A DNA stretch of 64,000 bases from a virus: positions 32,001 to 96,000 of the IMG/VR virus record IMGVR_UViG_3300034082_004296. The stretch is one strand, 5' to 3'. Position 1 is the stretch's first letter, and every line of letters starts with the position of its first letter. A program made the translations under genes and the position numbers. The notes beneath the pieces were generated by a model. The model was not told the origin of the DNA. It worked only from the letters and a program-made list of their open reading frames with translations, and made no database searches. This document shows positions 27,195-31,204 of this stretch, in pieces.

Positions 27195-27223
27195 AAAGAG
27201 GATTCGAAAGAGTCCTCTTTTTT
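27195..27223 (+). terminator. Intrinsic terminator after the capsid gene
   Basis: AAAGAGGATTC-GAAA-GAGTCCTCTTTTTT. Confidence 0.85.
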
Positions 27224-27260
27224 GTTTATGGAGATAAATAATAAAAAACTTATAGAAATT

Positions 27261-27629
27261 ATGACAAGTTTAATGTCAACATTCTTAGGAATACAATCTC
27301 AATTTAAAGTGTTTCATTGGCAGACACAATCTTATGCTAAACATCAAGCATATGGTGGAATATATGATACACTTAGTGAATTATCTGACGATTTTATGGA
27401 AATATACATGGGAAAATACGGTCGAGTAGCCCTAGAGGGAGATACTGATTCTATCTTATTAGGTAATATTGGAGAAGTAAACATAGAGGAATTCCTGGAC
27501 ACTATTGTAGAATTCTTATTAAGTTTTAATCATAAGCTAGATGGTAACAAGGACAGTGATCTCTTAAATCTTAGAGATGAGATGCTAGCTGCAATTAATA
27601 AGCTTAAATACTTATTAACTCTAAAATAA
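27261..27629 (+). CDS. Ferritin/Dps-like four-helix protein
   Basis: HWQT.SYAKHQA...YD...D.FME.Y.G; start revised to ATG 27261, after ATAAATA 27234-27240. Confidence 0.75.
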   Translation: MTSLMSTFLGIQSQFKVFHWQTQSYAKHQAYGGIYDTLSELSDDFMEIYMGKYGRVALEGDTDSILLGNIGEVNIEEFLDTIVEFLLSFNHKLDGNKDSDLLNLRDEMLAAINKLKYLLTLK

Positions 27630-27640
27630 TTTTAAGAAAG

Positions 27641-28246
27641 ATGTCATTTATAAATTGGGGACACGAGACACCTGAACAATTACAGGCTCGTAAAAAAATG
27701 GAAGATACTCTTCTTTTTGAACAGGCAGCATATAGTGCGGCAATGGCGGCAGCTGCCGCTGCGGGATCAAGCGCACCACTTAGTACATACATTGTGACTA
27801 TCGATACTGCATGGCTATATCCAATAGCTGATATTGACTATGTTCTTGAAACTACTGAGATTAACTTTGTACAGGAAGGAAATGATCTTATTTTTAATAC
27901 ACTAGGCGATCTTACTGATTTTTACGATGAGGTATTTATTAAAACATCTGAGAGTCAGCCAGTAGGGAATGTTGGATATTCACTTGGAGTAGGTACACTA
28001 TTGTTAGAAAAGAGAAAATCTCTTAATTTAAAACTTAGTACTGGAGAAAAGGTTGTTACGTGGAGATTATTTGAACAATTAACAAATCAAGAGGACGTAC
28101 TTAGTCCAGGAAATTCGCCAGATGGCACCATTGGATATGGTTCTATCTACAACGATTATGATCTAAATGGAATACAAGATCCAACTAATGCAAGCCCGCC
28201 TCCTGCATATTCAGATCCACTCAGAATTATTAAGTATATTGATTAA
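27641..28246 (+). CDS. Hypothetical (probably virion) protein
   Basis: 201-aa ORF with LFE followed by a poly-Ala linker. Confidence 0.65.
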   Translation: MSFINWGHETPEQLQARKKMEDTLLFEQAAYSAAMAAAAAAGSSAPLSTYIVTIDTAWLYPIADIDYVLETTEINFVQEGNDLIFNTLGDLTDFYDEVFIKTSESQPVGNVGYSLGVGTLLLEKRKSLNLKLSTGEKVVTWRLFEQLTNQEDVLSPGNSPDGTIGYGSIYNDYDLNGIQDPTNASPPPAYSDPLRIIKYID

Positions 28247-28251
28247 ACAAC

Positions 28252-28279
28252 AAAAGAGGACTTATGTGTCCTCTTTTTT
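28252..28279. terminator. Bidirectional intrinsic terminator
   Basis: AAAAGAGGAC-loop-GTCCTCTTTTTT. Confidence 0.85.
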
Positions 28280-28282
28280 AGT

Positions 28283-28470
28283 ATGGCGGGCTCTCTTAAC
28301 CGAGAGAATAAACTAGTTCAAATGAAATTTGAGTTTATGATGGCATCCTTTTGAGCTCGTGAATCTTGAATTTTGAATATTCATCGCAATCAAACATCGG
28401 TTCTAGATAGTGTGTAGGGCATTGCTGCTCTTATAAACTTGCATACTCTTGCTCAGGTTAAGATCGCCCA
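28283..28470 (-). ncRNA. Putative structured RNA of about 190 nt, 3' of the DIP1984-like gene
   Basis: Nested pairings GGGC/GCCC, UCUUAACC/GGUUAAGA, AGAGUA/UAUUCU, AGUUUAU/AUAAACU, GCAAU/AUUGC; internal AUUCAAA-AUUCAAG-AUUCACG repeats; longest ORF-free gap in the window. Confidence 0.6.
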
Positions 28471-28471
28471 T

Positions 28472-28900
28472 TTAGATCTCAGTAGTATGATTAAATTTAT
28501 CTAGTTTTTCCTGTATCAATTCGATCTTGTTTTCGATCTCATCAATCTTGGCATCTTGCCATAGGATATCAAGCTCAGCATTCATCACAGTTGTGACGTT
28601 TTCGTATCTTTCTCTCCAAGTACCATTAGCAGTACTTACGGATCTTACTCTTTGTACCAGAGCTTTTAATTCAGAAAGCTCAAAAACTAGTGATCTAATT
28701 GGTTCAGAAGCAGTGTGGATTCGGGTCTTTAATTCGACTAAGTTAGCCAATTCGTTCTCAGCTTGTAAATAGAGATCTTTAGTACTATATGGTCTCTCTG
28801 CTCCCTCTTGAACAGAGTTATAACGATGGATCTTTTCCCAAATCTTCTGGATTCCAGCGATCTTTTTATTCTTTTCCTTTAGAGCTTGTGCGATTGTCAT
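28472..28900 (-). CDS. DIP1984-like coiled-coil protein
   Basis: MTIAQALKEKNK...NSVQEG..RP...LVELKTRIH..,..IQEKLDKFNHTTEI resembles the recalled family pattern MKLAEAL..QEG..P..N. Confidence 0.65.
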   Translation of the reverse strand: MTIAQALKEKNKKIAGIQKIWEKIHRYNSVQEGAERPYSTKDLYLQAENELANLVELKTRIHTASEPIRSLVFELSELKALVQRVRSVSTANGTWRERYENVTTVMNAELDILWQDAKIDEIENKIELIQEKLDKFNHTTEI

Positions 28901-29159
28901 AATTATTATTTTTTTGTTTTTTAGTTACTCGTCGTCGATACTTCCTTAAATCATTAACTAGAATAACTTTAGGTGCAGTACCATTATAGATAGGATCATT
29001 TTGCCAAGTAGTATAGATTAGTCTACCCATTTGATCGTTAATGATATAAATAGTAGAACGATCAGCTGTTGCAACAACATACTCATTAGAAATAGGCTCT
29101 TGTAAAAAGCTTAAGTTAACACAGGCTGTCAGAAAAAGGATTAATATAATTGTTTTCAT
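28866..29159 (-). CDS. Hypothetical exported protein or lipoprotein
   Basis: MKTIILILFLTAC signal/lipobox-like N-terminus. Confidence 0.6.
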   Translation of the reverse strand: MKTIILILFLTACVNLSFLQEPISNEYVVATADRSTIYIINDQMGRLIYTTWQNDPIYNGTAPKVILVNDLRKYRRRVTKKQKNNNYDNRTSSKGKE

Positions 29160-29165
29160 GATTAA

Positions 29166-29396
29166 TTATACTATTACTTCAGGGTAAGGTTTCCATTCTA
29201 CCTCTTCTTCGTTCCTTCTGAAGGCAAGAAGTATCTCGCCAGACTCATCTTTACCGATAGCCACAAATCCATACCCTTCACAGATATGTGGAAGATAGAA
29301 ACCATTTTCAATCTTGGAGGCTATTTCTAAGATATCAAAGTCCCATCCAAACTCAGGATCTTTGTGTTCACAATATTGTTTTGAAAACTCTGCCAT
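29166..29396 (-). CDS. Hypothetical protein
   Basis: 76-aa ORF in the operon. Confidence 0.7.
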   Translation of the reverse strand: MAEFSKQYCEHKDPEFGWDFDILEIASKIENGFYLPHICEGYGFVAIGKDESGEILLAFRRNEEEVEWKPYPEVIV

Positions 29397-29420
29397 TCTA
29401 TTTAGATTTAATTAATAATC

Positions 29421-29463
29421 ATTAATAGTTAGTAATAATTATTAATAGTTAGTAATAATTATT
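29421..29463. repeat. Tandem 20-bp direct repeat
   Basis: ATTAATAGTTAGTAATAATT x2, with partial flanking copies, in an intergenic gap. Confidence 0.85.
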
Positions 29464-29587
29464 CTTTTGTATCAAGAAATTCCTCAAACCACAAAAAAAG
29501 AAGAATACCAGGTATAGTTAAAATAATTCCTGGAAGTATAAACAAAGCAATTATGGATCTGCCAACCACCGTCAAGTATTTTTTCAT
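29459..29587 (-). CDS. Small membrane protein (42 aa)
   Basis: My translation MKKYLTVVGRSIIALFILPGIILTIPGILLFLWFEEFLDTKE; ATGA overlap with the upstream stop. Confidence 0.6.
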   Translation of the reverse strand: MKKYLTVVGRSIIALFILPGIILTIPGILLFLWFEEFLDTKE

Positions 29588-29826
29588 TTTATTAGTTTTA
29601 CTCTTGTTACTTCACCCTTTCTATTTACTCGATACTTTATTTTAAACGTATCTACCATTATTGTATACTGTTCATTTAGATGAAGACAATTCCACTCACA
29701 GTTATCGTGGTGATATAGGTGAACGTGTATCTCGTCTAGTTTTTTACACTTTAGATATTGTACTCTTTGATGATTCCAATTAGAACAACTAGTTAGCAAT
29801 AAAAGTAATATTAATAGTCTCTTCAT
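29584..29826 (-). CDS. Putative lipoprotein
   Basis: MKRLLILLLLLTSC lipobox. Confidence 0.7.
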   Translation of the reverse strand: MKRLLILLLLLTSCSNWNHQRVQYLKCKKLDEIHVHLYHHDNCEWNCLHLNEQYTIMVDTFKIKYRVNRKGEVTRVKLIK

Positions 29827-29836
29827 AATATAGATC

Positions 29837-31204
29837 TTAGCTATTATACTCTTTTTGAAGTGCTTTTTTCAATTCTTGTAAATCTTCTCGATACATGTTC
29901 AGAGGCTCCTTCTTCTTAATCTCTTCAAGTTCCCTCTCTTTTTGAAACTCAGCACTTATTAAGTCTTCATATGTTTCCTTAGTAAGTGAATGAATCGGCA
30001 TCCCTAATAGGTATTGATATGATCCATTTATCTCATCAAAGTTATCTGTCTCCAAGTAGAGAATTATCTCTTTTCTAGGAACATTATTGATCTTTAACTT
30101 ACCCTCAATTATGGCTTTTACGAAACGTGCTCTATTTGAGAGTAGAGCGAGTTCTTGATTTAGAGTATCAATAATAAATTGCTTTCTCTTTTCATAAAAA
30201 GTGAGCCTAAATTGAACGAAATATTCAATAATCTCACTGGCTGAATTAAAGATTTTTAATTTACCGTGTTCGTCCAATACTGTAAAGTTCTCAGTCTGGC
30301 GTTCTTCCATCTTTAGGAGTCTCTTTAATCTTACTGAGTCACCTAACATCTTAAGATCTTCTCGTCTAAACTTAAGAACATAATTGATGTTAGACTTGCA
30401 GTTATTTTCGTAACTTGCAATTCTTCGGGAATCTTCAAGATCGATTAAGTGCTGGTCGAATTTTTCATAAGTAACAGAAGGAGGAAGCTCTGTAATATTC
30501 ACAGTCGTGGTATTTTTTACTTCATACTTTCCACTAAATATCCATGAAAACTTTTCGGGGTCTATTAGTTCGCAACCTCCAATAAACTCTCTGTTCCATG
30601 GAGTAGGTTCAGCATATTTTTTACCCTCTAGAGATTTTAAACAGGCATCGATTAGGCTAATTGGATTGCGATTTAATATATTTGTTGCGAAGCCTACTGC
30701 AATCCCGCTACCGCCATTCAGGAGGACAGTTGGGATAATAGGTAAGAAATATTTAGGTTCGATCTCATTGCCTTCCTCGTATCGAGATTCTAATAATTCA
30801 AAATCTTTATATAGGAGTCTAAAGTTCTTATGTAACTTGGTTGCTATATAACGAGGAGCGGCTGCTTCTGGCGAACGTAAGGATCCAAACTGACCAATAT
30901 CTTCTAATACTGGCATTGAGTTCTTAAACCTTTGTGCCATGCCAATAATTGCTGAATTAAGAGAGCCGTCTCCATGGTGATAAAAAGCGTCTGCCGCCAC
31001 CCGACCGGCTAATTGAAAGATCTTCATTGGTTTTTCTGAACCGTTCTTCCATACTTTATTTGCAACAAAGATTACTTTGCGTTGAGTTGGCTTGAATCCA
31101 TCGATCACTGATGGAATTGCCCGCTCTTCAACGACATATACTGCATACTCCTTATAGTCGTTATCTAAATAGTCGGTTACTGTCTTTATTTCTGGCTTTC
31201 GCAT
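29837..31204 (-). CDS. DNA topoisomerase II, GyrA/ParC-like subunit (gp52)
   Basis: RAIPSVIDGFKPTQRK, YHHGD, AAPRY (catalytic Tyr), GIAVGFAT. Confidence 0.96.
   Translation of the reverse strand: MRKPEIKTVTDYLDNDYKEYAVYVVEERAIPSVIDGFKPTQRKVIFVANKVWKNGSEKPMKIFQLAGRVAADAFYHHGDGSLNSAIIGMAQRFKNSMPVLEDIGQFGSLRSPEAAAPRYIATKLHKNFRLLYKDFELLESRYEEGNEIEPKYFLPIIPTVLLNGGSGIAVGFATNILNRNPISLIDACLKSLEGKKYAEPTPWNREFIGGCELIDPEKFSWIFSGKYEVKNTTTVNITELPPSVTYEKFDQHLIDLEDSRRIASYENNCKSNINYVLKFRREDLKMLGDSVRLKRLLKMEERQTENFTVLDEHGKLKIFNSASEIIEYFVQFRLTFYEKRKQFIIDTLNQELALLSNRARFVKAIIEGKLKINNVPRKEIILYLETDNFDEINGSYQYLLGMPIHSLTKETYEDLISAEFQKERELEEIKKKEPLNMYREDLQELKKALQKEYNS

Follow-up and report, generated by a model that had tools for sequence, protein, structure and literature searches.

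A structured RNA linked to a DIP1984/DUF6847-like gene in a T4-like phage: a candidate two-part protein–RNA particle

Introduction

In Bacillus, multimeric proteins recognise triplets set at even intervals along single-stranded RNA, HutP doing so on the hut leader and TRAP on the trp leader; the HutP sites consist of NAG followed by four spacer bases, giving a 7-nt period. In type III toxin-antitoxin (TA) systems (ToxIN, CptIN, and TenpIN), a protein gene lies adjacent to a repeat RNA, the pair being bounded by a terminator and carried on mobile DNA, with 34–45-nt repeats located upstream of the gene and cut apart by the endoribonuclease toxin. Bacterial Y RNA, the partner of Ro60 (Rsr), has an end-to-end stem around a functional loop and is encoded beside its partner gene, including in some phages, and 6S RNA is a rod closed by both of its ends around a bubble that mimics an open promoter. 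The DIP1984/DUF6847 protein family has no function on record in the literature we searched, and searches on DUF6847, DIP1984, “septicolysin”, p2ABAYE, and p2AB5075 found no RNA partner. The family includes the protein of structure 3KDQ (uncharacterised, from Corynebacterium diphtheriae), and its members are often labelled “septicolysin”.

Here, we analysed a 64,000-nt stretch of DNA (the window), corresponding to bases 32001–96000 of a 176-kb T4-like phage record judged to be ~70% complete. An earlier sequence-only reading of the window had singled out a DIP1984-like coiled-coil protein gene followed by a rod-like RNA with heptamer repeats, and put the two forward as a candidate ribonucleoprotein system, with a particle, a toxin/antitoxin-like pair, a sponge, or an autoregulatory element as suggested roles. 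The locus is flanked by topoisomerase II subunit genes and by the gene for a T4-type major head protein, and its features, in window coordinates, are as follows:

28472–28900, minus strand: gene for a 142-a.a. DIP1984/DUF6847-like helical protein (ORF, HMM matches, AlphaFold2 model, 3KDQ fold match)
28282–28474, minus strand: whole conserved RNA, 193 nt, from the stop codon to just before the terminator (covariance models, full-length match over 1–193)
28444–28469, minus strand: 5′ arm of the closing rod, P1 (fold; covariation, helices 1–5)
28288–28310, minus strand: 3′ arm of the closing rod, P1 (fold; covariation; wobble counts)
28419–28428, minus strand: small hairpin with a GCAA-type loop, P2 (model helix 6, double changes)
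28379–28398, minus strand: first periodic array, with GAU occurring three times at intervals of 7 and 6 nt (sequence; columns conserved in the family consensus)
28322–28376, minus strand: G-poor rail of ~8 units, U-U/C-C-A-A-R, with spacing of 7, 7, 8, (14), 8, and 7 nt (periodicity, consensus, composition)
28243–28277, minus strand: intrinsic terminator with its hairpin at 28277–28252 (terminator search; hairpin also in the fold)

The likeness of this locus to HutP and TRAP lies in the layout of the RNA, not in the protein. Short units at fixed spacing on non-paired RNA, two arrays, and a protein predicted to be oligomeric are common to both; however, the protein fold is unrelated (neither HutP nor TrpBP was among the Pfam matches of the phage protein at E-values up to 0.1), and the phage RNA lies behind its gene inside a closing rod, whereas theirs are leaders that control a terminator. 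Given that the next gene converges on the RNA, there is nothing downstream to regulate in the window. Type III TA systems resemble the phage module in joining a protein gene to an adjacent repeat RNA, in being set off by a terminator, and in their presence on mobile DNA, but the phage units are 7 nt long, lie downstream of the gene within one closed fold, and accompany a helical-bundle protein. With Ro60 and its Y RNA the module shares the end-to-end stem around a central loop and the position beside a partner gene; unlike Y RNA and YrlA, the phage RNA carries no tRNA-like module, and we detected no TROVE domain in four neighbouring proteins using Pfam and no Y RNA or YrlA using Rfam. The resemblance to 6S RNA put forward from the sequence extends to a similar size and a rod closed by both ends, but no further: there was no 6S or other relevant Rfam match in 28100–28600, even at E-values up to 10, the centre is a conserved 7-nt periodic rail instead of a 6S-type bubble or open-promoter mimic, and the phage RNA is tied to one protein gene. 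A scan of the 64-kb window with Rfam 15 at gathering score, 6S included, matched 0 families, and 0 tRNAs were found across the same stretch. The canonical DIP1984/DUF6847 members share with the phage protein a length of ~142–150 a.a., the same fold, and, in the replicons examined, an unannotated folded stretch behind the gene.

Results and Discussion

The DIP1984/DUF6847-like protein

The phage protein gave full-length matches to Pfam PF20935 (DUF6847; E-value of 1.1e-5, 25.8 bits against a cut-off of 27) and to NCBIfam NF038048 (DIP1984_fam; E-value of 1.1e-7, 32.1 bits against a cut-off of 70), so that the phage branch falls below both curated HMM cut-offs. Precomputed Pfam annotation assigns PF20935 to an identical protein and to many homologues. 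The start codon is fixed by the invariant N-terminus MTIAQALKEKN that the homologues share. An AlphaFold2 model built with 31 homologues (mean pLDDT of 90.7) predicted helices at residues 3–27, 40–64, 66–87, and 112–139 and a beta-hairpin at 93–106. Two structural comparison methods returned 3KDQ as the best match, with a probability of 1.00 and TM-scores of 0.57/0.54 in Foldseek and a Z-score of 12.4 in VIA-align (rmsd of 5.1, 140 of 142 residues aligned), where the next-best rows were two-helix hairpins covering ~63 residues (Z ≤ 9.1). The DIP1984 likeness named in the sequence-only reading holds, given the E-values of the profile matches and the fold. A profile search returned 1,757 clusters at 50% identity (E ≤ 0.001), and among the best 150 representatives nearly all are 140–157 a.a. 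long and match from end to end.

The earlier claim of an oligomeric protein is supported by a predicted self-association. The homodimer prediction scored 0.60 (0.00 for the best control), passing a mark attained by 20 of 30 proteins whose solved structures are pairs and by 1 of 23 whose structures are single chains, and the runs agreed on ≥98% of contacts with a partner pLDDT of ≥90; given that 3KDQ is a solved relative, and that a relative has been solved with four chains, this pass may reflect the memory of the model. The dimer as predicted is formed through helices 2–3 and loops at one end. The invariant residues K8, K10, N11, Q130, D134, N137, and H138, which lie at the beginning of helix 1 and the C-terminal end of helix 4, fall outside this interface and likely constitute a putative ligand site. 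No recognised RNA-binding domain occurred among the Pfam, NCBIfam, and PHROGs matches, and searches of PADLOC, PHROGs, and PDB sequences gave no functional lead, the PADLOC matches being coiled-coil noise only.

The RNA element in the window

A spacer of ~190 nt, as originally described, separates the TAA stop codon of the gene (28472–28474) from a terminator hairpin (28277–28252, minus strand), the latter being the only terminator-like site within 27600–29900. The hairpin is preceded by an A-tract and followed by a U-tract, and a converging 201-codon ORF faces it from the other side, indicating that the terminator probably works in both directions. No sigma-70-like site separates the gene from the spacer. 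The 192 nt after the stop codon have a minimum free energy (MFE) fold of −45.8 kcal/mol (z of −2.96), a stability equalled by 0 of 200 shuffled sequences. All of the end pairs that had been proposed by eye, namely GGGC/GCCC, UCUUAACC/GGUUAAGA, GAG/CUC, and AGAGUA/UAUUCU, are present in this fold. The two inner helices proposed alongside them (AGUUUAU/AUAAACU and GCAAU/AUUGC) were rejected as not conserved: the strands are complementary in the window, but across the family they pair in 44.2% of cells against 44.0% in shuffles, with 232 of 500 shuffles scoring as high. The spacer carries no conserved ORF. Two small ORFs readable in the window (22 and 20 codons) were considered as coding sequences and rejected, their counterparts in close relatives having 2–7 codons or no start codon.

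Conservation and covariation

A single-protein search of viral contigs for close relatives returned nothing; with an alignment as the query, we collected loci encoding homologues from viral (51), genome-bin (16), and metagenome (56) sequences. An exact 14-base word from the rail was also tried as a locator in viral contigs and abandoned, as only 2 of 118 loci so found held the gene, such a word being too short to be informative in A+T-rich phage DNA.

In nearly all of the collected loci, the 330 nt after the stop codon follow one layout, comprising a 5′ arm, GAU units, UCAA-type units, a complementary 3′ arm, and often a terminator, whose place after the RNA is taken in some loci by the next gene. 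The layout persists at protein identities as low as ~27% and extends to a G+C-rich Planctomycetota contig, and the arm sequences differ wholly between clades while their complementarity is kept. Four of the 51 viral loci (L044, L048, L050, and L051) are without the rail. In one of these (L050:440–619), the arms are like those of its relative L045 and the periodic centre is missing, as if the rail had been deleted.

To describe the structure, MAFFT and RNAalifold were applied to 13 divergent sequences and recovered only 7 pairs; as the arms misalign, this approach was set aside for a covariance model seeded with six sequences, iterated, and rebuilt on 37 sequences (R2). The RNA in the window scored 159 bits with the R1 model and 142.5 bits with R2. 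Among 51 distinct sequences, 83.7% of cells pair compared to 60.1% in column shuffles, and double changes occur at 26 of the 28 pairs (302 cells against 105 expected). Sliding the partner by 1–3 columns as a control lowers the pairing to 33–53%, and a 12-sequence set gave the same picture. These counts come from model-fitted alignments and are, accordingly, biased towards the modelled structure. In an alignment-free comparison, the 5′ 50 nt pair better with the 3′ region than shuffled 5′ arms do (median z of −2.4, 54 loci), in agreement with the above; a cross-locus duplex control was noisy, given that G+C-rich terminators pair with anything.

As to the covariation check suggested in the sequence-only reading, P1 covaries strongly and P2 covaries as well, both of its pairs showing double changes (AU 12, GC 10, CG 7, and UA 6). 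Wobble pairs across P1 and P2, counted on the gene strand, number 111 for GU and UG against 29 for AC and CA, an excess that fits an RNA made from the gene strand, and not a DNA cruciform or an antisense RNA. Helices 7–8 of the model, which would pair a GAU unit with the first UCA unit, showed no covariation, both sides being nearly invariant.

The heptad rail

The heptamer repeats noted at the outset are a property of the family. In 49 loci, TCA recurred at a distance of 7 in 100 instances (3.1 expected), with additional peaks at 14/15 (37 and 49 occurrences) and 22 (52 occurrences), and the GAU and UCAA units are conserved column by column in the family consensus. The rail is poor in G (10%, compared to 16% overall) and has a predicted unpaired probability of 0.54, compared to 0.27 for the arms.

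Linkage of the RNA to the gene

Searching 339 kb of sequence with R2 produced 54 matches at E ≤ 0.01, all located directly 3′ of a homologue on the same strand and none elsewhere. Five phage records totalling 828 kb each contained one significant match, at the gene, all other matches having E ≥ 0.3; in the 176-kb record studied here, the RNA in the window is likewise the sole significant match. The RNA is new, conserved, structured, and strictly linked to a gene of the DIP1984 fold.

Genomic context in related phages

Comparison by blastn to deposited phages gave no match, tblastn matched two distant uncultured phages only, and tblastn of the phage protein against plasmids gave none. In the closest contigs, a common order is kept, consisting of a topoisomerase gene, small ORFs, the DUF6847-like gene, the RNA, the terminator, and a converging head module. 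Compared to window positions 27222–31204, these contigs (L002–L017) share 44–68% identity in the DUF6847 protein, 69–95% in the topoisomerase II subunit, and 75–94% in the head protein. The preserved order, together with the faster divergence of the DUF6847 protein relative to its flanks, indicates that the module is vertically inherited in this phage lineage yet fast-evolving, and its fixed place between topoisomerase and head genes points to a role in infection and not to a recently acquired selfish insert.

Canonical relatives on plasmids and chromosomes

Using the Pfam model, canonical members were found in 2 of 401 sampled Bacteroidota genomes (the control genome, Deinococcus radiodurans, also matched), and one canonical protein used as a query matched 370 plasmid records, 341 of them from Acinetobacter and many of these small plasmids. 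We read six replicons, comprising two Bacteroidota chromosomes, p2ABAYE of Acinetobacter baumannii AYE, and plasmids of Picosynechococcus, Streptomyces, and Enterococcus. Behind the canonical gene in all six lies an unannotated, strongly folding stretch of at least 200 nt (fold z of −3.21 in p2ABAYE). Five of the six have GCGAG plus three bases at the 5′ end, answered near the 3′ end by three bases plus CUG; in the Streptomyces plasmid, only a 5′ GGCG was seen of this shared end motif. A tRNA-like T-loop sequence is present in two (L189, a Bacteroidota chromosome, and L249, the Streptomyces plasmid). Among the few canonical relatives examined, the 7-nt periodicity is weak or occurs in other units, e.g., CAC and UAC. 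Rfam matched only two tRNAs in eight related loci, canonical DIP1984 included.

The end motif, seen at L191:1885–2082, L190 (reverse strand), L189, L248, and L250, is similar to an internal loop of the kink-turn kind, in which G-A pairs stand in tandem. At the corresponding position, the phage RNA reads GGGCGA and GA-GCCC, suggesting that the phage and canonical RNAs all belong to one old family.

A proposed protein–RNA particle and competing explanations

Given that the RNA is always found with the gene and belongs to no catalogued RNA family, the two are probably halves of an undescribed protein–RNA particle. We favour, with moderate confidence, a two-part particle made of the gene product and the 193-nt RNA, in which protein dimers sit on the heptad rail. 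Gene and RNA are co-oriented, with no promoter-like site between them and one shared terminator. The RNA would be made as the tail of the messenger and then perhaps trimmed to the rod, P1 tying its ends and presenting a largely single-stranded, G-poor loop with three GAU and about eight UCAA units at 7-nt spacing. Parallel two-fold dimers, as predicted for the protein, may line up along these units, each protomer taking one, with the conserved polar patch where helix 1 begins and helix 4 ends as the binding surface; a single RNA would then scaffold or retain several dimers, giving a defined particle. Weighed against this are the viral loci without a rail (4 of 51), the 7-nt period that is weak or in other units in the few canonical relatives examined, the lack of a recognised RNA-binding domain among the profile matches of the protein, the bias of the model-fitted alignments, and the fact that linkage alone also fits a 3′ untranslated region (UTR) acting only in cis. 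Under the latter explanation, there is no trans-acting particle; rod and terminator shield the messenger from 3′ exonucleases, and the rail is where the protein, if anything, adjusts how stable its messenger is or how well it is translated. The extent of the RNA from stop codon to terminator, with no promoter-like site in between, and its strict attachment to one gene are as expected for such a UTR. A stabiliser, however, needs no ~55 nt of conserved, 7-nt periodic, G-poor sequence across ~30%-identical proteins, and loci in which the RNA is followed by the next gene without a terminator also speak against it; we consider a purely cis-acting element rather unlikely.

The rail itself, with a pyrimidine-C dinucleotide every 7 nt, raises the prospect of a decoy or sponge that traps a host RNA binder (Rho, an RRM-type protein, or a ribonuclease), the phage protein being a mere helper or unrelated. 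The composition and even spacing of the rail do resemble the loading sites of multimeric RNA binders, and the module is carried by a lytic phage and shares its strand with the topoisomerase genes; nevertheless, the same pairing of gene and RNA is found in unrelated bacteria, on plasmids as well as chromosomes, with differing RNA sequences, which a co-travelling partner explains better than one host-specific target, and a decoy therefore appears unlikely. Quite unlikely, in our estimation, is a type III-like toxin–antidote pair, in which the free protein would be harmful and a multi-unit RNA would neutralise several protomers. A two-part module of protein and repeat RNA with a patchy spread (the 2 of 401 Bacteroidota genomes and the 370 plasmid records, many of them small Acinetobacter plasmids) would suit this idea, but gene and RNA come in the opposite order, the repeat units measure 7 nt and not 34–45 nt, the helical fold is not that of an endoribonuclease, PADLOC offered nothing beyond coiled-coil noise, and synteny is stable within a lytic phage lineage. 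Finally, an inverted repeat with short direct repeats could mark an element acting as DNA (iterons, an origin, or an inverted-repeat-flanked recombination site), and the two readable ORFs of 22 and 20 codons could be short coding sequences. The one-stranded wobble pairs (111 to 29), a 7-nt period that does not fit the DNA helical repeat, the fixed position and orientation relative to gene and terminator, and the lack of conservation of the short ORFs in close relatives make both highly improbable.

Extending the protein–RNA particle beyond phages, we tentatively suggest that DUF6847 proteins and their downstream RNAs could constitute a widespread, unrecognised class of particles in phages, plasmids, and bacteria. 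In such a class, dimers would sit on a rod-held 7-nt rail, the protein branch and the RNA unit would co-evolve (UCAA here, others elsewhere), and the particles would act in conflicts between mobile elements and hosts; we regard this broader proposal as possible, if somewhat doubtful. Should the particle be real, it would provide the first functional handle on a family of at least 1,757 clusters at 50% identity, among whose members are a protein with a crystal structure that was deposited in 2009 and another encoded by hundreds of clinical Acinetobacter plasmids, and a new class of structured RNA would join the small set tied to one protein. The periodic rail would amount to a directly testable binding code, and the module is also present in cultivable hosts (p2ABAYE of A. 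baumannii AYE and the Enterococcus, Streptomyces, and Picosynechococcus plasmids).

Host and minor features of the locus

Sixteen homologous loci (L171–L186) lie in bins labelled as freshwater Crocinitomicaceae, Flavobacteriales, and other Bacteroidota, with one labelled as Planctomycetota. The contigs come from freshwater sites. A freshwater Bacteroidota bacterium is the probable host, unless the binning grouped phage contigs with their hosts.

In the ORF list of the window, the ORFs around the gene (28472–28900, minus strand) are tightly packed. The DUF6847-like gene is without a Shine-Dalgarno-like sequence (window 28901–28930), and its start is overlapped by 35 nt, in another frame, by a 97-codon ORF (28866–29159, minus strand) found in only some relatives (6 of the loci examined). 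Further upstream, in the gap between a 42-codon and a 76-codon ORF, a 20-nt A+T-rich word occurs in two perfect tandem copies with a partial third (29421–29460, minus strand).
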